The position numbers and the translations under genes are program-made. From positions 175 through 64,174 of the forward strand of contig DMES01000078.1 of the NCBI GenBank assembly GCA_003450815.1: a DNA stretch of 64,000 nt, in the 5' to 3' direction. A model generated the notes under the pieces. The model saw only the letters and a list, made by a program, of their open reading frames with translations. It had not been told where the DNA came from and did no database searches. Shown in pieces: positions 7,181 through 62,732 of this stretch. Origin of the DNA: Elusimicrobiota bacterium. Lineage in GTDB: Bacteria > Elusimicrobiota > Elusimicrobia > Elusimicrobiales > UBA9959. Each line of letters opens with the position of its first letter. Position 1 is the stretch's first letter.

Positions 7181-8941
7181 ATGAAAATGAAAAAACCACT
7201 CGCTTTGCTGCTTACGGCGGTATTTTTAACGCAGAATCTGCCGGTGCTTTACGCTGTTGAAAATGCCACCGTTAAATCAGTCCGCGTATCCGCGGAGAGC
7301 GTTTATATCGCCACCGACAAGCCCGTGGAATACAAGGCCATTTTTATGGGACAGCCTCCAAAACTGGTGGTTGAGCTTATGGGTACGCGGCTGCAAACGC
7401 TTGAAGATATACCGGTAAACGGCAAACTCCTTAAACGGGTGCGTACGGGCCAGTTTAAGACAACTCCTGTCAGCATTTCCAGGGTGGTGCTTGAACTCTC
7501 CCAGAAGGCGGCTTATGAAATAACCCGCAAGGGCTCGGAGCTGGCGGTGGTGCTTGGCGGCAGGCCGGCACAGGCAAGGCTGGCGGTGAAAGACAAACAG
7601 GAGGCTCCCGCCGGAGTTATGGTCATTACGCCTTCCGACAGCGCGGTCCCGTCCCGTCCGGCGGAAATAAAAATGGACCCGGCGCCGGTCAAGCCTGAAG
7701 ATCTTTCAAGAGAAAGCGTGCCGGTCATAAAGCCGAGAAAACCACAGTCCGCGCGTTCGTCTTTCCGCAATATCATGGACAGTCTATCCCGCGAGCCGGT
7801 CAGTTTTGATTATAATGACGCCAATGTGCGCGAGGTAATAGGCATGATGGCAGCCAAAGCCGGAGTCAATGTGATTTACTCCGATGAGGTTTCCGGCACA
7901 ATAACCATCAGCCTTAACAAGGTGCCGTTCGACGAGGCTTTTAAAACCATATTGGACGGAAAAGATCTTGCCGCGCAACAGGTGGGGGACAATATTTTAA
8001 GGATAGCCTCTCCGCAGACTTTTCTCGCGGAGCAGAAAAAAGCAATGCTGCAGACCAGGGTCTTTTTTCTCAATTACGCCAAAGCCGCGGAAGTGAAAAC
8101 CCAGGTGGAAGCTGTGACCTCAGCCGAAAACCGCAAAGCCAGCTGTGTCGTTGACGAGGCCAATAACGCTCTTATCATTACCGCCATCCCCATGAGCCTT
8201 GAAGAGATAGCCCGTCTGCTTAAAAATCTGGATCGTGTTCCGCAGCAGGTGCTTATTGAGGCGAAACTTGTGGAAGTCGCTCTTGACAACCAGATAAGCA
8301 TGGGGGTGGACTGGTCTAACAGTAGCACGGACGGGAATTCCGATTATGGCTCAAGTCTTACCGGACCTGTGGGCGAAACAGGCTGGTTCAGGTTCGGGCG
8401 GGTGACGAGCGACTATGTGTTCAGCTCCTTTATTTCCGCCATCGCCAAAAAAGGCAAAGCCAAAGTGCTCTCGGACCCGAAGATAGCCACGCTGAACAAT
8501 AAACCGGCGGTCATCAACATCACCTCGCAAGTGCCTTATAAAACCCAGACGGTCGCTGCAGGCACGCCGCCAACCGTAACCGATGTTATCGTATACCTGA
8601 CCGTGGGCATCACCCTTAAGGTCACCCCGACCATAAATTCCGACGGGCGCATTTCGATGTATATAAACCCAAAAGTGGAGCAGCCTTCCGCGTCGTATCC
8701 AGCCGAAAAATTCGCCGCGCCTGGAATAGATACCAGAAGCGTTGAAACCAATGTCATAGTGAGAAACGGGGAAACCATCGTGATCGGCGGGCTCATACAC
8801 GATACCCAGAGCGATGTGGTGACCAAAGTCCCGCTTTTGGGAGATATCCCGCTGCTTGGCTATCTCTTCAGGAGAAAAAGCGTGATACGCCAGAGGATGG
8901 AACTGCTGATTTTCGTTACGCCGAAAGTGATAGAAGACTGA
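7181..8941 (+). CDS. pilQ: type IV pilus secretin PilQ
   Basis: Signal peptide and an AMIN-like N-domain. The secretin C-domain ends in VPLLGDIPLLGYLFRRK..LLIFVTP. Confidence 0.92.
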   Translation: MKMKKPLALLLTAVFLTQNLPVLYAVENATVKSVRVSAESVYIATDKPVEYKAIFMGQPPKLVVELMGTRLQTLEDIPVNGKLLKRVRTGQFKTTPVSISRVVLELSQKAAYEITRKGSELAVVLGGRPAQARLAVKDKQEAPAGVMVITPSDSAVPSRPAEIKMDPAPVKPEDLSRESVPVIKPRKPQSARSSFRNIMDSLSREPVSFDYNDANVREVIGMMAAKAGVNVIYSDEVSGTITISLNKVPFDEAFKTILDGKDLAAQQVGDNILRIASPQTFLAEQKKAMLQTRVFFLNYAKAAEVKTQVEAVTSAENRKASCVVDEANNALIITAIPMSLEEIARLLKNLDRVPQQVLIEAKLVEVALDNQISMGVDWSNSSTDGNSDYGSSLTGPVGETGWFRFGRVTSDYVFSSFISAIAKKGKAKVLSDPKIATLNNKPAVINITSQVPYKTQTVAAGTPPTVTDVIVYLTVGITLKVTPTINSDGRISMYINPKVEQPSASYPAEKFAAPGIDTRSVETNVIVRNGETIVIGGLIHDTQSDVVTKVPLLGDIPLLGYLFRRKSVIRQRMELLIFVTPKVIED

Positions 8942-52884: not shown

Positions 52885-54408
52885 ATGAGACCTATCCGCA
52901 TATTCATAAGCAGTGCGCAAAAGGAATTTGCAACTGAACGGGCCGCGTTGCGCGATTATCTGCGCGGCGATGCCCTTATGCGCCGGTTTTTTGAACCGTT
53001 TTTGTTTGAGGATGTCCCCGCTGCCGATCGCAGGGTGGACAAAGTCTACCTGCATGAAGTGGAACAGTGCGACATCTACCTCGGCTTATTCGGCAACGAG
53101 TACGGGTTTGAGGACGCCGACGGCCTTTCACCAACAGAGCGCGAATTTAATACCGCCTCCGGGCTGCATAAGGCGCGGCTAATCTTTGTAAAAGGGGCGG
53201 AGGATGGAGCCAAACATCCAAAGATGCAGGCACTCATCCTCCGAGCCGGGTCGGAACTCATTCGGCGCCGGTTTGGAACGAGCGCGGAACTGCTCACTGA
53301 CGTTTATTCCGCGCTGGTGCAGGTGCTTGAAGACCGGGAACTGATCCGTACCGGGCCGTTCGATGCTGCTCTTTGTCCCGGGGCTGCGCTGGAGGATCTG
53401 GATGAAGGAAAAATGCGGCGGTTCATTCTTGATGCCCGCCGTGCCAGAGGCCTCCCGCTGAGCGAGGAGGCCTCTCCAAAAGATATTCTGACCCACTTAA
53501 ACCTTCTTGATAATGGTGGGGTGGTGAACGCCGCCGTGCTATTGTTCGCGCGGCAGCCGCAACGGTTTCTGGTCTCCTCGGAAGTGAAGTGCGCACATTT
53601 CCACGGCATTGAGGCAACAAAACCGATACCTTCCTATCAGACATACAAAGGTACGGTATTTGATTTAGTGGACCATGCGGTGGATTTCGTCTTATCGAAG
53701 ATCAATCTTGCCGTTGGCACGAGGGCGAACAGTTCGCAGGCGCCTGTTGCATATGAGATACCCCCGGAAGTTGTTCGCGAAGCTGTCGTTAATGCCGTGG
53801 CGCACCGGGATTACACCAGCAACGGCAGTGTCCAGATTATGCTCTTTTCCGACCGGCTGGAGGTCTGGAATCCGGGCACTCTGCCGCCTTCGCTTACGCT
53901 GAAGAAACTGCGTCACCCGCATGGCTCGGTGCCATGGAATCCCCTGCTGGCTGAACCGCTTTACCTCACGAAATACATAGAACGTATGGGCACCGGCACG
54001 GGGGATATGATCATGCGCTGCCGGAATGCGGGTCTTGCCGAGCCGGAGTTTGGCCTGACCGACGGCTTTGTAGTCACCATCCGCCGCAAGCCGGAGCAGG
54101 CATTTGAGGCGGTTGGGGGAGAGAAGAGTCAATCCAGGGGCAAGTCACAGCCAGAGTCACAGCCAGAGTCACAGCCAGAGTCCTTGGAAATTCGGATTTT
54201 GCGCCAGCTTGCGGCAGCTCCTTTAGGAAAGGCTGAGTTGTCTGCACGCCTCGGCCAAAAGGAAATTTCAGGCCAGTTAAACAAGGTTATTCGCGTTCTC
54301 CTGGGTGATCAAACCATCGAAATGACCACCCCCGACAAGCCCAATAGCCGTCTGCAGCAGTACCGACTCACCGAGACAGGCCGCGCCTTGCTCACAAGGA
54401 AGAACTGA
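52885..54408 (+). CDS. DUF4062-like N-domain fused to a COG2865-type (RecG-like HATPase_c_4) region and C-terminal winged-helix
   Basis: The N-terminus IRIFISSAQKEFATERAALRDYL fits the DUF4062 pattern. The central AVLLFARQPQRF...VVREAVVNAVAHRDYTSNGSVQIMLFSDRLEVWNPGTL fits the COG2865 core. An SQPE x3 linker precedes a wHTH-like tail. Confidence 0.7.
   Translation: MRPIRIFISSAQKEFATERAALRDYLRGDALMRRFFEPFLFEDVPAADRRVDKVYLHEVEQCDIYLGLFGNEYGFEDADGLSPTEREFNTASGLHKARLIFVKGAEDGAKHPKMQALILRAGSELIRRRFGTSAELLTDVYSALVQVLEDRELIRTGPFDAALCPGAALEDLDEGKMRRFILDARRARGLPLSEEASPKDILTHLNLLDNGGVVNAAVLLFARQPQRFLVSSEVKCAHFHGIEATKPIPSYQTYKGTVFDLVDHAVDFVLSKINLAVGTRANSSQAPVAYEIPPEVVREAVVNAVAHRDYTSNGSVQIMLFSDRLEVWNPGTLPPSLTLKKLRHPHGSVPWNPLLAEPLYLTKYIERMGTGTGDMIMRCRNAGLAEPEFGLTDGFVVTIRRKPEQAFEAVGGEKSQSRGKSQPESQPESQPESLEIRILRQLAAAPLGKAELSARLGQKEISGQLNKVIRVLLGDQTIEMTTPDKPNSRLQQYRLTETGRALLTRKN
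54145..54180 (+). repeat. perfect 12-bp x3 tandem repeat (TCACAGCCAGAG) encoding SQPESQPESQPE
   Basis: Read directly. It forms the linker between the HATPase_c_4-like region and the C-terminal wHTH. Confidence 0.95.
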
Positions 54409-55815: not shown

Positions 55816-55913
55816 TTGATAATAATTAAACGGTGGTTGTATTGTCATATTGCAAGAATATTAAATGTTTTTTGTGTTATGTTGTTACAATGAGCGGGTA
55901 ATGGGACATATAT

Positions 55914-56654
55914 ATGAAAGAAGGCGATAACAATGTCGAGTTTAGGCCCGTGTGTAAGGATACTCCGGAAGAATTTACTGATTTTTTAGCGAATTTAAAG
56001 GACCCGACGGAGCCGGAAAAGCATAATAGCGCCTGGACAAGGTTGTGGACTCAGATTAAGATATGGGCTAACGGGTGTATTAGAAAAGTCTTTGGGGCCA
56101 CTGAGGAAGATGCTGAGGATTTAACCAGTAAGGTGATGAGTACTGTTTTTGCAAAAATATATGAGTTTGAAATTCAGGACAAAAAGCACTGTGCACTGCA
56201 ATTTTGCGGGTATATTAATAGATTCGTTATAAATATTTGGATGAAGATTAAAGGTAGCAAGTTTACCAAAAGAAAATTGAAAGGGTCGGATAAAGAAAAC
56301 GCAGCGGAGGAAGGTGGGATAAGGAGAGAGGCAGCGGAAGAACAGTATCAACGCGACGTTGAGGTTTTAGATGATAAAGGTGATAAATCGGACCCGGCTG
56401 CTATTTTGTATAGCACAAGGAAGATTCAATCGGGTTTTTACTATTTGGATTTATTCGCTAAGCAGAGCGCCGTAAAAGCTTGGGTCCTAAGGAAGGCGGC
56501 ATTTTTGATAATAACGGATCCGGAATTTACACTTAGCCGGGATGTTAAACGGCGGTTGTCGGTTAGCCGTGAAACGCTGTGGCGCGATTGTAAGGAGTTT
56601 GCTGAATTTGTACGGAACCAACCCGGAAGTAAGGAAGAGGGGCTTTATGACTGA
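55914..56654 (+). CDS. sigma-70 family (ECF-like) sigma factor candidate
   Basis: Region-2-like segment AWTRLWTQIKIWANGCIRKVFGATEEDAEDLTSKVMSTVFAKIYEF...YINRFVINIWM. Region-4-like HTH tail RRLSVSRETLWRDCKEFAEFV. Motif-level recognition only. Confidence 0.55.
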   Translation: MKEGDNNVEFRPVCKDTPEEFTDFLANLKDPTEPEKHNSAWTRLWTQIKIWANGCIRKVFGATEEDAEDLTSKVMSTVFAKIYEFEIQDKKHCALQFCGYINRFVINIWMKIKGSKFTKRKLKGSDKENAAEEGGIRREAAEEQYQRDVEVLDDKGDKSDPAAILYSTRKIQSGFYYLDLFAKQSAVKAWVLRKAAFLIITDPEFTLSRDVKRRLSVSRETLWRDCKEFAEFVRNQPGSKEEGLYD

Positions 56655-57195
56655 GGATAATGAGAAAAAAGAGTTTTATCAACGACTGATTGATATCGTA
56701 GGTGAGCGGGAGGTTGGGATAATTTTACCTTCTCATAAGGTGGGGAAATGCGATGAAGGCCTGATAATCAGCTATCTCTCAGGCGGGATGCCGCCGGCAA
56801 AAATGAAAGTTGCAGAGGAAAAGATATTCTCCTGCAGCAAATGTACCCTGCTTGCCATAGAATTAGCAAGGGCGACGGAAGGCATAAAAGATGATTGCCC
56901 CCAGGGAACAAAACTGGATCATGAGGGGTTCGTGCGCTGGCGTGAGCGTTTTGAGAAAGAGCATTTATATACAGTAAATAAAAAATATGGAAAGACAGAC
57001 CTAAAGTTTACCGCAAATGGGTGGGATGCGAGGATTGATAACGCTAAAGAAGACTTTCGGGTTAGGGTCGGTAAAAAAACATACGCGCCTACTAATGACG
57101 GGATTATTACCTACCCGGATACTCCGGATGCCGTGCTTGAATCTGCAGATGGGCCGACCGTTAATATACATGAATTCTCTGGGGGGCGTAAATGA
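56647..57195 (+). CDS. hypothetical cytoplasmic Cys-containing protein, anti-sigma-like by position
   Basis: Overlaps the sigma-like ORF by 8 nt and the STAND gene by 4 nt. Cys cluster C-x27-C-x2-C (GKCDEG...FSCSKC) sits where zf-HC2 anti-sigma proteins carry theirs, but the canonical His is absent. No TM helix. Confidence 0.4.
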   Translation: MTEDNEKKEFYQRLIDIVGEREVGIILPSHKVGKCDEGLIISYLSGGMPPAKMKVAEEKIFSCSKCTLLAIELARATEGIKDDCPQGTKLDHEGFVRWRERFEKEHLYTVNKKYGKTDLKFTANGWDARIDNAKEDFRVRVGKKTYAPTNDGIITYPDTPDAVLESADGPTVNIHEFSGGRK

Positions 57196-59549
57196 TTCAA
57201 CGTATTGAACAGGAAATGGAAAAACTTTTGCTGGAGAAGCACGGCCTTGATTATCTTCTTAATAATGCCGCTGATGATATTGTTGCCAAGATAAAAAATA
57301 TGGAGAGTGGGGTGTTTTTAGTGGAGGGCTTGCCTGGCATAGGGAAGAGTGCCAGCATGAAGTATATTGCAAATGCCGTTGGCGCGCATAACCCAGAAAG
57401 AGTTGTTCATTTTTACTTCAGCTTGAATAATCCTGTTTTAGATAATGCGGATAATTATTATGAATACACCTGTGATAAAATCAGGATAATAATGGGAGTT
57501 GCAGATCCTGCCGTTCCACAAATTCAAACTTCAAGAAGGGAGAGGAAAGATTATAACGATTTCCAGCAATCCGTATTGGATTTGTCCTCCGCAATAGGCA
57601 AAGATGACGAGAAAAAAGTTTATTTTTTCATTGATGGTATAGAGGAGATGCGTGATTATAAAGAATTCCTTAGCTATATTCTTCCGGCTGAAGGTGTTAT
57701 CTATGTAATTTTTGCGCAACCAGGCGTTTGTAACGGAAGTTTGCCGGTAAATTTCCTTGAACACGGAAAAATAAAAAATCGGGTTGAAGTAAAATATCTC
57801 AATAAAACACACGCCAGGGAATTTTTCTGGAAAGTGTTTGGGAAAGCCCCAGATGCTGAATTTGATGTTTTTGAGTCTAAGGTGCGAGCGCATTTTGATA
57901 GTTATATTGAAACCGAGGAAAACCGTTGCCCATTATTGCTTAAGATTTTAGCCGAGGACGCAAAGGAGGATGGATTTAATCTAGATAGGGCTTGGGCTAT
58001 TGGGTTAGAAGGATATTTGGATGGGCGAGTTAAACTTTTTTCTGAGAATGCAAAAAAGCTTTTGGTTTTAGTGGCGCTAGCCAAAGGCCCGCTGCAGAGC
58101 GAAGACCTTGTTGAAATGACGGGTTTAAGCCGGGCGGTTTGCGATGGGGCACTTAACGAGGCGAAGAAATTTTTAATAATTAACGGCCAAGGTATTGTTA
58201 TATCCCATAATGTGTGGGCAAAATTAATTTCTGATAGATGGGGTGACAAGTCAAGTTATGAAGTGTATTTAACTTGGTGCGCCAATTGGAGCAACCCTTC
58301 CCTGCGCCAGGAAACAGCGGTATATATAGCTCGGCACTATGTGTTTCATGTCCTGGACTTTTCCGACAGATGGTCTGATGGCTCTGGAAGAGCAGAGGAA
58401 TTATTGCTTGAACTGTATAAGGACTCTGCTGATGAATATGTGGGCTTTCAGCTAAACACTTTATTCCCATTAGGTGAATCTTTGACTGATATTAGTCGCA
58501 TAGCTAAAAAAGCTTTTGTGAGAGTTTCCTCATCGCAAAAATTCAAACCGGAACTTGTGGTTACTTTGGTAGCGGTAATATGTCAGATAGAGGGATCAAA
58601 ACGTGCAGATTTTACAAGGGAGTATTTAAGCGCTGCGAACCGGAAGGGTATTGACAGTGAAATCGATAAAGGCATAATTCGTGAGGTAGCAACTTCTGTT
58701 TTAGCCATGATTGGATGCGATGAGGCCGGGCTCGTATGGGGATTGCTACCGATTGAGACGGGGGTGGATAAGAAATGGGATGATTCTCAGGCTCTATGTT
58801 ATCTGGTCTCAGAAAAGATCTTTAGAGAGATGCCTTCTGAAGAAAATAAGTTGCTAATATTTGATACTTTCTTGCAAAACACGAGGAGATGTTTAGAAGG
58901 TGACGCGGTGCGTTTAAAATCAGCTACGTGGCCTGAGAATGTTAAACTTGTTTACCAAGGTCTGCGTGTCTGGTTGAATATCTATGCAGCTTTTCAGCCG
59001 TGGTTGAAATTACCACATGATTCTAGAAATCCTAAGGTAAAAGTCTTAGCAAAGCATGGGGCTCAGTATGAACAAGGTATTCTGTTATGGGTAAATGCAC
59101 TTTTTAGATGTGCGAAACAAATATCTAAAGAAAAAAGCGGGATTTCTGGGGTGGAGCGTGAAATGCTTAATAGAATTCAGCGTGCAGGAATTCTTGCCCA
59201 ACTTAAAATAAAGCCAGTCATATGGAATATGGGGCCTAAAGGCGCAACCTGCAGAGCAGATGAGATTGTGTCTTTATCATGTATTATAATTTGTGAACAA
59301 GATGTTGTTGCAAGGCGTGCTGCTGCTGAGGGGTTGATTGAAATTGGTGATTCTACGGCTTGTGAGGCTTTGATTTATGGACTAAAGAATGATACAGATG
59401 TCCAAGTTCGCGCCCGATCCGCCACAGCTTTAGGTAAAATTGGTGATCCCTGTGCGCAAGAGCCGCTGATTGAAGCTATAAATGATGAATTTGAAGAGGT
59501 TCGAGTGGCTGTTAAAACGGCCCTTGAAAAACTCAGGCCTGCTAAATAG
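57192..59549 (+). CDS. STAND (NACHT-like) P-loop NTPase with C-terminal HEAT (PBS-lyase type) repeats, no N-terminal effector domain
   Basis: Walker A GLPGIGKSA at about aa 47. Walker B VYFFIDGIEEM. Long helical middle region. C-terminal repeats AAEGLIEIGDSTACEALIYGLKNDTDVQVRARSATALGKIGDPCAQEPLIEAINDEFEEVRVAV. Confidence 0.75.
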   Translation: MIQRIEQEMEKLLLEKHGLDYLLNNAADDIVAKIKNMESGVFLVEGLPGIGKSASMKYIANAVGAHNPERVVHFYFSLNNPVLDNADNYYEYTCDKIRIIMGVADPAVPQIQTSRRERKDYNDFQQSVLDLSSAIGKDDEKKVYFFIDGIEEMRDYKEFLSYILPAEGVIYVIFAQPGVCNGSLPVNFLEHGKIKNRVEVKYLNKTHAREFFWKVFGKAPDAEFDVFESKVRAHFDSYIETEENRCPLLLKILAEDAKEDGFNLDRAWAIGLEGYLDGRVKLFSENAKKLLVLVALAKGPLQSEDLVEMTGLSRAVCDGALNEAKKFLIINGQGIVISHNVWAKLISDRWGDKSSYEVYLTWCANWSNPSLRQETAVYIARHYVFHVLDFSDRWSDGSGRAEELLLELYKDSADEYVGFQLNTLFPLGESLTDISRIAKKAFVRVSSSQKFKPELVVTLVAVICQIEGSKRADFTREYLSAANRKGIDSEIDKGIIREVATSVLAMIGCDEAGLVWGLLPIETGVDKKWDDSQALCYLVSEKIFREMPSEENKLLIFDTFLQNTRRCLEGDAVRLKSATWPENVKLVYQGLRVWLNIYAAFQPWLKLPHDSRNPKVKVLAKHGAQYEQGILLWVNALFRCAKQISKEKSGISGVEREMLNRIQRAGILAQLKIKPVIWNMGPKGATCRADEIVSLSCIIICEQDVVARRAAAEGLIEIGDSTACEALIYGLKNDTDVQVRARSATALGKIGDPCAQEPLIEAINDEFEEVRVAVKTALEKLRPAK

Positions 59550-59642: not shown

Positions 59643-59685
59643 CCCCAGGCAGCAGTAAAATGCTGCCTGGGGCTGCTTTGTTTTG
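59643..59685 (+). terminator. rho-independent terminator after the STAND operon
   Basis: CCCCAGGCAGCA-gtaaaa-TGCTGCCTGGGG followed by CTGCTTTGTTTT. Confidence 0.85.
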
Positions 59686-59805
59686 GCATTAAGTTTCCGA
59701 AGAACCCATATAGACAAATAATTGGACAAAACACCCTGCAACAAAATAGCGTTAACCGGGAATATACAGGTAGAAGGGTAACGCTGAGAGGGTCTGGGGG
59801 ATGGT

Positions 59806-59977
59806 ACAAACTGGAAGCCGGCGACATATAGTGATAGGCAATTAAAACTTACGGAGGAATATATGAACACAAAACACCTTACAGTAGACACAAGCAATGC
59901 GGCCTGGGAGATTTTCGGGTTTGACCGGGAAATGCGGGGAAGTGAGCATCGCGTTACGGATAGCCAGCGCTCAAAAA
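59806..59977 (+). repeat. copy 1 of a ~170-bp tandem duplication (leader + first ~38 codons of the NYN gene)
   Basis: Aligns with 60073-60245 at a 267-268 nt offset, with by-eye identity of roughly 80%. The first 26 nt (ACAAACTGGAAGCCGGCGACATATAG) are identical. Confidence 0.85.
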
Positions 59978-60585
59978 CCACAGTCTGCCTTCAACGCGAG
60001 GCTATTGAACGCTGCGGAAGCTGCGGCGCGCCTGCCATACAGGGGGCGGGGTTCTGTTATTCGTGTCTTGCAACAAACTGGAAGCCGGCGACATATAGCG
60101 AGAGGCAGCAAAAACTTACTGAGGAATATATGAACATAAAATACCTTATAGTGGATGGAAGCAATGCGGCCAGGGAAATTTTTGGGTTTGGCCGGGATAT
60201 CTGGGGGAATGAGCGCCGCGTTCTGGATAACCAGCACTCAAAAAGCCTGCTTTCCGTGCTTGCCGCGTTTCCCAAGAGGCTCGGTATACCTGAAATTAAG
60301 GTGTATTTTGACGGAACCGTGCGGCCGCATGAAATATGCCCGCGAAACCTGCCCATGAGCGTACGCCTGGAATTCGGTGCCGGAACTGCCGCGGATGAAC
60401 TTATAGTACGCGAGGCCGGCGCTCTGGTCAATAGCGCCGGAGGGATAGCCGTTGTAACTAATGATCGCGATCTGGGAAACCGGGTTAAAGGGTTGGGGGT
60501 ATTCAAGGTTCTTCCGGTGTGGTCACTGAAAGCAATGGCCCAGGATGCCGGTCTGAATACGGATTTGTATTTCCACTCGGCCTAA
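59863..60585 (+). CDS. NYN/PIN-like (YacP/Rae1-like) ribonuclease domain protein with duplicated N-terminal segment
   Basis: The second copy MNIKYLIVDGSNAAREIF...ADELIVREAG...IAVVTNDRDLGNRV fits the NYN YacP pattern. An internal ATG at 60130 has its own RBS and would give a 151-aa canonical protein. The upstream 89 aa are a degenerate copy plus a Cys-rich linker (CGSCGAP...CYSC). Confidence 0.65.
   Translation: MNTKHLTVDTSNAAWEIFGFDREMRGSEHRVTDSQRSKTTVCLQREAIERCGSCGAPAIQGAGFCYSCLATNWKPATYSERQQKLTEEYMNIKYLIVDGSNAAREIFGFGRDIWGNERRVLDNQHSKSLLSVLAAFPKRLGIPEIKVYFDGTVRPHEICPRNLPMSVRLEFGAGTAADELIVREAGALVNSAGGIAVVTNDRDLGNRVKGLGVFKVLPVWSLKAMAQDAGLNTDLYFHSA
60073..60245 (+). repeat. copy 2 of the tandem duplication
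   Basis: See 59806-59977. Confidence 0.85.
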
Positions 60586-60652
60586 TGTGCGGGTTCTGTG
60601 CCAACGGAAGCGGAGTAAAACGACCTTCAGTCAAAACTTAGTAAGAGGACTT

Positions 60653-62284
60653 ATGATAAAAATAAAAAACAATAATGATTATCTCGCAAACCTTACCCGC
60701 ATTCTTTGCAACCCTGATTTCCACCGGGCTCTTCCCGATAAGTCTCCGGCGCCATTGCTTAAGGCGCCGACAAGGCTTAGGTCTGTTGCTTCGGCTGTTG
60801 ACTCTAAAGCCGTCTGCGCCAAAACTCTTGCGGAATTGCGCGAGCTTTTTGCCGCCGGTCAAAAGGGAGTTAAGCGCGGGCTTAAAATACCTTTTACCAA
60901 AATTTGCGTGCAGAAACGGTTTGATGAAATAGAGTCCGCGGCCTTCGCGCTCTTTGCGGTGGCTGAAATTTCCGGTCGGGATCAGTTTGAAATCTTCCGC
61001 GGGGCGGAAAACATCTTTAAATCCCTGGCTGGCCTGTTCGGCATGGAAAAGGTAAGGCTGGCCCCTTATTTTCTGTCTTCCGGCAAACTCAGGAAATCCG
61101 GCGTGTTTTCGTGTGGACATTACATGCAGGACGACGCCTTCCGTCTGCCGTCTAACTTAAGGGAGAAAATTATTGAAAAACTGCTTACCGGAGATAAGAA
61201 ATCCCTCAAGAAGAAAAATAAGGTTGTGAAAATACTCCGGCCCGGCAGCATTTCAGAGAGGCTCGGTTTAAACGTAATAGCGCAGGAGGCCGCCAAAAGA
61301 CAGCTCTCAACCGTGGCTTTTCAGCATTTGCAGCGCGCTAAAACACCGGTTAAATCAGGGTTGGCCGCGCCGCGCCTGAATACGCTGCTTATCGGGCCTA
61401 CCGGCTGTGGAAAAACTTATATAACCAAATGCCTGGCGGAAATACTGGGTGTGCCCGTTGCCTTTTGCGACGCCACACAGTACACTGAAACCGGCTATGC
61501 GGGCGCCTGTGTGGAAGATATGCTGGTGCAGCTTCAAACGTCCGCCGGAGACAACCCCAAAGCCGCGGAATACGGGATAATTTTTATAGATGAAATAGAC
61601 AAGATACGCGCGGAAAGTGTGGGTCAGTCACATAACAGTAACCGTGATGTAAGCGGTCTTAGCGTACAGCAGGACCTGCTTAAAATACTTGAAGGCGACA
61701 AGCTTAACTATGAGAAGTATCGTACAAGGTGTCTCAGCGAGTATAGCTTTAACGTAAAGAATGTGTTGTTTATCGCCGCGGGCGCATTCCAGGGTTTGGT
61801 TGATATCGTAAACGATCGGATTAAAACCAAAAGACAGATAGGATTTAATGACCAGGCGACCTTAACAAACGGTCAACCTGAGCAGGTTAATCTTCTGCAA
61901 CAGGTACGTCCGCAGGACATTATAAAGTACGGTTTTATGCCGGAGCTTATAGGGCGTTTCCCTAATGTAATTGCGCTTGACCGGCTTACCAGGGAAGATT
62001 TTCTGGGTATACTGGATAATCCCCGCACAAGCCTTGTGGAGTATTACCGCGATTTTTTCAATAAACATGGTGTGGAGCTGGAAATCCCGCCTGAGTTTTA
62101 TGGGGAAATTTCCGCCAATGCCATTGACCGCGACTTGGGCGCCAGGGGCCTTAACGCTGCCGTGGAAGGGTTTTTCTCAGGCCTGGTTTTTGACCTTCTG
62201 AAGTTCAAGAAAGCCGGTGAAAGACAAAAAGTCAACATAATGGACTATACTCGCGGCGGGCATCTTAAGGAACTGTTCGGGTAA
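60653..62284 (+). CDS. ClpX-like AAA+ ATPase with a novel ~240-aa N-terminal domain (no ClpX zinc-binding domain)
   Basis: Walker A GPTGCGKTY. Pore-loop-like ETGYAGACVED (ClpX has GYVGEDVE). Walker B IIFIDEIDKI. LLKILEG, FIAAGAF, an IGF tripeptide (RQIGFND), FMPELIGRFP and GARGL. I preferred the ATG at 60653 (AAGAGGA RBS) to the GTG at 60587. Confidence 0.8.
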   Translation: MIKIKNNNDYLANLTRILCNPDFHRALPDKSPAPLLKAPTRLRSVASAVDSKAVCAKTLAELRELFAAGQKGVKRGLKIPFTKICVQKRFDEIESAAFALFAVAEISGRDQFEIFRGAENIFKSLAGLFGMEKVRLAPYFLSSGKLRKSGVFSCGHYMQDDAFRLPSNLREKIIEKLLTGDKKSLKKKNKVVKILRPGSISERLGLNVIAQEAAKRQLSTVAFQHLQRAKTPVKSGLAAPRLNTLLIGPTGCGKTYITKCLAEILGVPVAFCDATQYTETGYAGACVEDMLVQLQTSAGDNPKAAEYGIIFIDEIDKIRAESVGQSHNSNRDVSGLSVQQDLLKILEGDKLNYEKYRTRCLSEYSFNVKNVLFIAAGAFQGLVDIVNDRIKTKRQIGFNDQATLTNGQPEQVNLLQQVRPQDIIKYGFMPELIGRFPNVIALDRLTREDFLGILDNPRTSLVEYYRDFFNKHGVELEIPPEFYGEISANAIDRDLGARGLNAAVEGFFSGLVFDLLKFKKAGERQKVNIMDYTRGGHLKELFG

Positions 62285-62379
62285 GAGCATCGGGGGCTTA
62301 TGAATGGCAGGAAAGGCAGGTAACATTTCGGCAGCTGTAGTCTTATAGTAGAGGCTGGTTAAAACATAGGAGGTTATAT

Positions 62380-62601: not shown

Positions 62602-62732
62602 TTGTAAGAACGGGAAAATTAGTTATTCTACGCTTGACCGTTCTGAGTATGGCCAAAGTCCCTGCAACAAAATGGAAGCTGTCGGGCATATGTAGGTGAG
62701 AGGCGGTAAGGTTGTGAAAATAAGGAGGCAAT

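Follow-up and report, generated by a model that had tools for sequence, protein, structure and literature searches.

A 64,000-nt stretch of DNA from an Elusimicrobiota bacterium (hereafter the window; positions 175-64174 of the 86-kb contig DMES01000078.1, from a draft genome of 2.79 Mb and 51% G+C) carries a 7-kb island in which a short DNA motif made of distinct blocks recurs in front of genes. The motif is confined to the island within the 2.79-Mb genome, travels with the same trio of regulator genes to related loci, and has a core that is conserved above the duplicated sequence flanking it. We place at roughly 0.5 the probability that this motif is a dedicated promoter read by a divergent extracytoplasmic function (ECF)-like sigma factor encoded by the island itself, a reading that draws on sequence patterns and comparisons. 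The system so defined comprises three regulator genes and a DNA word of 45 nt.

A preliminary description of this DNA had reported five related leader copies of 50-60 bp, four of which end in a strong Shine-Dalgarno (SD) sequence and an ATG. The coordinates and letters of all five stretches are correct, copies A, B, C and D each end in an SD and ATG, the first copy (A0) has no gene directly after it, and the 14-mer CCCTGCAACAAAAT is exact at 59734 (A0) and 62660 (C). The shared leader is smaller and more structured than first described, as the conserved unit spans only ~45 nt at fixed spacing and, with the copies anchored at block 1, reads TGnWACAA (block 1), 15-16 nt, GGG(A/C)ATAT (block 2), ~6 nt and a GAGAGGC-like purine block (block 3); the last 25-35 nt before the ATG, SD included, are common to A and B only. 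T1, G2, A5, C6, A7 and A8 are invariant in nine copies, with the core of block 1 being AAC in six of the nine and TAC in the other three. The fixed spacing of the first two blocks, with ATA starting 24-25 nt after T1, is present in A0, A, B and C as well as in two copies from a related locus designated L003 (at its positions 7536 and 7656). No conserved block at a fixed distance was seen when the region 15-22 nt upstream of block 1 was inspected by eye.

All copies in the window lie on the + strand. A0 (59734-59790) stands in tandem with A, 65 nt upstream of it, and is followed by A (59802-59862) and B (60069-60129), each with T1 positioned 61 nt before a start codon, at 59863 for A and at 60130, the ATG of an NYN-like gene, for B. 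The same distance of 61 nt is found in D (62319-62379; GGTAACAT, then TTATAGTAGAGGC), which precedes a 73-residue gene, and T1 of C (62660-62732) lies 70 nt before the ATG of an 86-residue gene. An extra copy that the preliminary description had missed occupies 55883-55913, directly before the sigma-like gene, and consists of TGTTACAA, 14 nt and GGGACATATAT, then ATG.

The reality of these copies was judged by local alignment with two sets of controls, 1000 dinucleotide shuffles and 2000 pieces drawn at random from the genome. The scores of A-B (45), A0-C (21) and B-C (18.5) were reached by none of the shuffles and none of the genomic pieces, so that the similarity exceeds shuffled controls outside the A/B pair as well. 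The A-D score of 14 was reached by one of the 1000 shuffles, and alignments of D with A0, B and C were at chance level. D scores below 6 with a position weight matrix (PWM) of the motif, and both D and a leader-like stretch before the ClpX-like gene (60598-60652, weak, with only CAAAACTTA..AG in common with B and not counted as a copy) give p ~0.03 relative to real SD-bearing leaders of the same genome. Because A and B head a single duplication, the strong independent copies number three (A0, A/B and C); the claim of five related copies thus holds for the likeness of A0, B and C, and D is doubtful. As a separate observation, the 16-mer TAAGGTTGTGAAAATA is exact at 62707-62722, within the stretch of leader C that separates block 3 from the SD, and at 61219-61234 within the ClpX-like coding sequence, where the chance expectation for such a pair is estimated at ~0.002 in 4.5 kb.

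Genome-wide scans show that the motif is restricted to the island. A relaxed regular expression gave 22 matches in the genome versus 25 in the reversed-genome control, with five of the 22 on the + strand of the island and every one of these before a start codon. The two-block PWM scored A0 at 33.5, C at 33.4, B at 27.1 and A at 22.4 bits, and the best of 5.6 million other positions at 19.4. The copy at the sigma-like gene scores 15.3 bits, against a background rate of 0.83 per 10 kb per strand for scores of at least 12 bits. No copy of the motif precedes any of the genome's three canonical ECF sigma genes, which argues that it is not the target of another sigma factor.

The A/B pair offers an internal measure of constraint. 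The segments 59806-59977 and 60073-60244 form a 172-nt duplication of 84% identity, with the copies 267 nt apart, in which the A and B leaders make up the first 57 nt and the remaining 115 nt fall within the NYN-like coding sequence; likeness that crosses the leader, the SD, the ATG and 38 codons, as in a segmental duplication, is seen for A/B only. The motif core from block 1 through block 2 carries no mismatch in 26 positions, compared with 6 in 31 for the rest of the leader and 22 in 115 for the coding sequence (core versus coding sequence, Fisher p = 0.014). The coding mismatches are spread over codon positions 1, 2 and 3 as 5, 9 and 8, an evenness which indicates that the upstream coding copy is drifting freely. 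Either the core is under constraint in both copies or it was homogenised more recently.

The upstream duplicate forms the start of a chimeric open frame (59863-60585, + strand), composed of the copied NYN N-terminus, a zinc ribbon of CxxC-x10-CxxC spacing and a read-through over copy B into the NYN-like gene. A and B would have arisen when copying or gene conversion placed one leader and 115 nt of NYN coding sequence on the adjacent zinc-ribbon gene, and the zinc-ribbon gene of the window probably lost its own 5' end by gene conversion from the NYN leader. At the equivalent position of L003 (7794-7952) there is a stand-alone gene for a 52-residue protein with CxxC-x10-CxxC spacing. The A/B duplication is a copying event caught as it extends into the coding sequence of a neighbouring gene, and illustrates how genes might be recruited to a regulon by leader copying.

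A copying history of this kind could also mean that the repeats are non-functional relics of repeated duplication of the 5' end of the sigma gene, retained only by recency, given that the copies resemble the 5' end of the sigma gene in their own locus, first codons included, and that A0 has no gene directly after it. We regard this as very improbable, as the core stayed free of mismatches while the co-duplicated coding sequence drifted by 19%, the blocks are conserved across loci far above protein identity, and the copies are consistently placed 61, 61, 61 and 70 nt before start codons. An attC-like cassette recombination site was also considered and given no weight because no recombinase-like Pfam domain is present among the island proteins scanned.

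Comparison with related loci shows that the motif is kept together with the regulators despite protein identities of 25-44%. The only other complete locus is L003, in which regulators of 233, 178 and 1497 residues (the last a STAND protein) are 25, 35 and 32% identical to the three of the window, the STAND value extending over 461 residues; beyond them lie a 425-nt spacer, the 52-residue CxxC-x10-CxxC gene, a gene for a ClpX-like protein 64-66% identical to that of the window, and other cargo. A second locus, L008, is a 3.6-kb contig that holds the three regulators only, at 38-44% identity (44% for the homologue of the 182-residue partner protein). With a PWM trained on the window copies only, the top L003 match falls at 7656 (+) in the spacer between STAND gene and cargo with a score of 17.0, where 0.33 matches of at least 16 are expected in the 35 kb scanned counting both strands, and the top L008 match falls at 781, directly before the sigma-like ATG. 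Alignment of A0 to all of L003 placed its best tiles at 7501-7531 and 1531-1561 and that of C at 7621-7651. None of these tiles is below the 99.9% background quantile, and all fall within the two predicted regulatory spacers. Both loci contain tandem copies, at 7536 and 7656 in L003 and as A0 and A in the window. The cross-locus PWM evidence runs in the direction from the window to L003 and L008, as a PWM trained on the two L003 copies lacked the power to pick out the window copies from the 5.6 million genome positions.

Placement at the sigma-like gene is equally consistent: the distance from the start of TGnWACAA to the sigma-like ATG is 31 nt in both the window and L003 and 29 nt in L008, and with a word frequency of 7.1e-5 per position the chance of such placement in three loci is ~1e-11. 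In contrast, four further loci with ClpX-like genes (L004-L007) have WYL regulators without the trio, and scanning these WYL-type loci yielded no convincing motif copy. Thus, the motif follows the regulator trio and not the ClpX-like cargo. An intergenic match at position 1514 of L007 was rejected, as by eye it is a terminator-like hairpin. One WYL-type locus, from a different Elusimicrobia genome, has TGCAAC-N17-ATATATG in front of a 155-residue gene (L004 12820-12849), the T lying 27 nt from the ATG, a layout that resembles that of the sigma gene; this is a single case and may be due to chance. No significant similarity was detected between those small cargo proteins of the window and L003 that were compared, where the common CxxC-x10-CxxC spacing, noted by eye, is the sole likeness. 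Also by eye, an uncalled open frame of ~58 codons (L003 7625-7797) spans the pair of downstream motif copies, its end overlapping the ATG of the zinc-ribbon gene.

The module is very rare, both in protein collections and across the phylum. A profile of the 182-residue family recovers three clusters among 5.8 billion proteins, four strong matches occur among 1.84 billion representative proteins, and a fourth member of the sigma-like family (P0013) was found in the representative library. Across 400 further genomes from the phylum, among them two from the same genus, the 182-residue profile matched nothing clearly, and scanning genome contigs with the 182-residue and sigma-like profiles revealed no further loci. 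Scans of viral contigs found no relatives, and the metagenome scan returned only L009, from the same organism as L003.

The three regulators are encoded by an AT-rich operon at 55914-59549 on the + strand, closed by an intrinsic terminator (59643-59672; 12-bp stem with 9 G-C pairs, then a T-run). The first gene (55914-56654) encodes a 246-residue protein without a match in Pfam, NCBIfam, PADLOC or PDB sequences. Its AlphaFold 2 model, built from three sequences, is all-helical and two-domained with a mean predicted local distance difference test (pLDDT) score of 62, residues 116-169 forming a variable, low-confidence linker. Every one of the top 50 Foldseek matches in the PDB is a sigma factor, including sigma-32, SigW-RsiW, AlgU-MucA and RpoE-RseA, with E values of 0.05-0.9 and probabilities up to 0.98. 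Profile alignment by hhalign with the three ECF sigma factors of the genome itself aligned the region 2 segment 'AEDL...F..WL' (E = 0.017). On the strength of the predicted fold, the 246-residue protein is likely a divergent two-domain ECF-like sigma factor. The second gene (56647-57195), with homologues in L003 and L008 and with its own SD in both complete loci, encodes the 182-residue partner, which has a predicted helical N-half, a well modelled beta-sandwich C-half (pLDDT 86-91) and invariant cysteines at C35 and C63-x2-C66. The third (57192-59549) encodes a 785-residue STAND NTPase of NPHP3_N/NACHT-like type with C-terminal HEAT repeats, in which Pfam finds the NTPase and HEAT repeats only and no DNA-binding domain.

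The block 1 sequence is ECF-like, as it contains the AAC core of ECF -35 elements and as TGCAAC and TGGAAC are -35 words found in the sigma-E regulon of S. coelicolor (PMC6767563). The promoters of tRNA genes in this genome are canonical (TTGACT-17-TATAAT, TTGTCT-17-TATAAT and TTGGAA-17-TAAAAT). A sigma-70 scan (TTGACA, 16-18 nt, TATAAT; at least 9 of 12 matches, with A at -11 and T at -7) passed copy D only, at 9 of 12 with GTAACA-18-TATAGT; together with the tRNA promoters, this argues that the motif is not of host type. The copies could nevertheless be ordinary weak host promoters for a housekeeping or other sigma factor, multiplied within the island by local duplication and gene conversion and independent of any sigma factor dedicated to the island, in which case the finding would be an ordinary one. 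The A/B pair proves that leader-bearing segments are copied here, copy D passes the scan, and the copies, when taken as GCAACA or GGTACA, 18-19 nt, and TATAGC, TATAGT, TATGTA or TATACA, look like a poor sigma-70 promoter. However, housekeeping promoters of the genome follow TTGnnn-17-TAnAAT and only D reaches 9 of 12, the invariant T1 and G2 and the GGG that precedes ATAT fall outside the sigma-70 positions, and duplication within one locus cannot account for the same blocks in L003 and L008. We therefore consider host promoters an unlikely explanation.

Several features together favour block 1 as the -35 and block 2 as the -10 element of a promoter for the island sigma: the sigma-70 scan accepts copy D only, housekeeping promoters of the genome look different, WACAAN lacks the T at -7 expected if block 1 were itself a -10, the sigma-like protein has no region 3, and block 1 is of ECF type. 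Promoter function, the roles of the two blocks as -35 and -10, the position of the start site and a requirement for the sigma-like protein are inferences. Each cargo transcription unit is headed by one motif copy or a tandem pair, in which domain 4 of the island sigma would read the AAC-type block 1 as -35 and domain 2 would read the GGGmATAT block as -10. Transcription would then start in the purine-rich block 3, leaving a leader of 25-35 nt that carries the strong SD. Release of the sigma factor by the STAND sensor would be expected to switch on all cargo units together. The preliminary description had proposed a common promoter, operator or 5'-untranslated region (5'-UTR) RNA element targeted by the sigma-like factor. 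A common cis-regulatory element tied to this factor is partly supported, by its restriction to the island, its passage with the trio to L003 and L008, its position before the sigma gene in three loci, the ECF-type -35 word and the exclusively sigma folds in the top 50; the RNA option and the inclusion of copy D are not supported.

A number of observations weigh against the promoter assignment. At the sigma gene, T1 is only 29-31 nt from the ATG, which follows directly after block 2, and normal -35/-10 geometry would put the transcription start 2-6 nt past the A of that ATG. Block 2 is not a CGT/GTC-type ECF -10 element, as the position 16-17 nt downstream, where such an element would lie, holds G(A/C)ATAT or GGATA(T/C). 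Tandem copies, as seen for A0 and A and for L003 7536 and 7656, are atypical of sigma-dependent promoters. The loci are few, with the cargo side visible in two and the regulator side in three. The sigma assignment itself is weak (fold E values of at least 0.05, an hhalign E value of 0.017 and no Pfam match), and the fold search with the 182-residue partner returned no anti-sigma factor among its matches, so that an anti-sigma role for this protein is unsupported here.

The position at the sigma gene can be read in three ways. No other in-frame start is available because the conserved FKP...T..E begins at once, and it is just possible that this copy is a leaderless promoter with unusually short spacing, which would be feasible for the window and L003 and not for L008. 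A second reading is that of an autoregulatory site, to which sigma-bound polymerase binds without expressing the sigma factor, suggested by the SD of the 182-residue gene and by the TTGATA-18-TATTGT promoter upstream. This sigma-70-like sequence lies at 55816-55845, 38 nt upstream of the motif copy, and could be a candidate housekeeping promoter of the regulator operon. The third reading is that block 2 at this gene is a ribosome-binding-site (RBS)-like signal and block 1 not a -35 element. The similarity of the cargo copies to the sigma-gene copy continues ~20 nt past the sigma ATG, as in C versus the sigma-gene copy (GGGCATATGTAGGTGAGAGGCGGTAA versus GGACATATATATGAAAGAAGGCGATAA), and fits either a functional third block or leaders copied from the 5' end of the sigma gene.

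The geometry at the sigma gene also bears on whether the motif acts instead as an operator or as a leader signal at the RNA level, with TGnWACAA...GGGmATAT bound by a regulator, the ribosome or a ribonuclease. The site at the sigma gene would then overlap the RBS and ATG and serve autoregulation, and the cargo sites, 30-40 nt upstream of the real SD, would be pseudo-SD or standby sites; a variant takes block 1 as a TG-extended -10, with blocks 2 and 3 in the 5' UTR. At all three sigma genes block 2 does comprise an SD and an AT-rich spacer with the ATG immediately next, block 2 of copy C is GGGCATATG followed by TAG, and the extension of similarity beyond the sigma ATG would suit such a signal. 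Stems that differ from copy to copy lie beside blocks 2-3 in A0 (7 bp), L003-7536 (5 bp) and L003-7656 (5 bp), with a combined p of 0.047 in a shuffle test that A0 alone carries. However, the folding energies of seven leaders are no better than those of shuffles (z of -0.8 to +0.9) and no Rfam match was obtained at E <=1, results that also contradict the 5'-UTR RNA element first suggested. The copies start ~35-60 nt after the preceding stop codon, leaving scant space for a separate promoter, and the extended -10 variant is opposed by the missing T at -7 and by the absence from the sigma-like protein of the region 3 needed to contact TG. On balance, an operator or RNA signal seems improbable.

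The promoter reading can be extended, more tentatively, to the island as a whole. It is possible that the motif is the private promoter of an immune-like switch in which an effector-less, NLR-like STAND ATPase controls the divergent sigma factor via the 182-residue partner, with exchangeable cargo as output. Cargo would be plugged in by gaining a copy of the 45-nt motif, and the copy at the sigma gene would be a feedback site that re-expresses the partner and sensor and not the sigma factor. The output would include the ClpX-like unfoldase, NYN RNase, zinc-ribbon and small proteins in the window, and dynamin-like GTPases and others in L003. If true, this would represent an NLR-like sensor whose output passes via a dedicated sigma factor to a portable promoter, and the motif would aid annotation of cargo genes in such islands.

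Among known systems, the closest analogue in how the element would work is the set of private promoters served by an alternative sigma factor, of either an ECF regulon or a phage. Phage-encoded sigma factors such as SPO1 gp28 and T4 gp55 have promoter classes of their own. The island likewise would be a mobile element that brings a divergent sigma factor and a matching promoter word before its own transcription units; it differs in having no phage genes and no relatives in viral contigs, and in its apparent control by a sensor NTPase in place of a temporal cascade. The STAND activators MalT and AfsR/SARP contact DNA directly, with a DNA-binding domain of their own. They share with the island a STAND NTPase that governs a small regulon via a repeated upstream DNA word, whereas the island STAND protein has no DNA-binding domain by Pfam and the separate sigma-like protein is the likely reader.

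Promoters of ECF group 4, exemplified by the S. coelicolor sigma-E regulon (PMC6767563), have in common with the island motif two short blocks at fixed spacing, a (T/G)G(G/C)AAC-type block 1, a copy beside the sigma factor's own operon and a small private regulon. The island differs in its GGG(A/C)ATAT block 2 in place of CGTC, in the extra AA after AAC and the purine-rich block 3, in a sigma-gene copy that is too near the ATG, in a sigma factor without a Pfam region 2 or 4 match, and in an operon partner that is a STAND NTPase as opposed to a membrane anti-sigma factor. The Craspase/Csx30/RpoE arrangement of type III-E CRISPR systems (PMC9729208) similarly wires a conflict sensor to an ECF-type sigma factor with transcription of a gene set as output; the island has neither CRISPR nor protease and its sensor is an NLR-like STAND ATPase. 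The comparison covers the wiring. An EACC2-caspase linked to an ECF sigma factor and DUF1822 has been predicted to be a conflict system (Kaur, Iyer, Burroughs and Aravind 2021, PMC8195603), and the portion of that account which describes it proposes that the coupled sigma factor regulates several genes. By that description, a caspase there takes the place of STAND-HEAT here, and the same portion mentions no promoter motif. A limited literature search found no sigma factor linked to a STAND NTPase with a mapped promoter word, nor a system in which an NLR-like sensor is coupled to a dedicated sigma factor with a promoter that is portable.

Downstream of the regulator operon, the order is A0, A, the chimeric frame, B within that frame, the NYN-like gene, the ClpX-like gene, D with the 73-residue gene, and C with genes of 86, 125, 120 and 173 residues, the 125-residue gene beginning after a gap of 3 nt from the 86-residue gene. 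The ClpX-like AAA+ ATPase (543 residues; 60653-62284, + strand) is the cargo gene in common with L003 and scores 299.7 bits with the NCBIfam ClpX model, under its 359-bit cut-off. A novel N-domain of ~170 residues replaces the N-terminal part of ClpX; it has five relatives, one of them in L003 in the same architecture, and one related ClpX-like protein is labelled Elusimicrobia by NCBI. The family forms six clusters in a large protein collection, and its contexts are defence-like and varied, with WYL regulators, DnaB_C proteins, an actin-like ATPase with NYN, or dynamin-like GTPases. At the head of the accessory stretch in the window (52885-54408) lies a gene for a 507-residue protein with DUF4062, HATPase_c_4 and Fic-like_C domains, which by PADLOC is similar to pAgo-associated proteins. 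TatD and MetH flank the downstream end of the island beyond the small cargo genes, and an IS200/Y1-type transposase gene is located downstream of MetH, ~5 kb past the end of the window (L001 10044-10700, contig C41).

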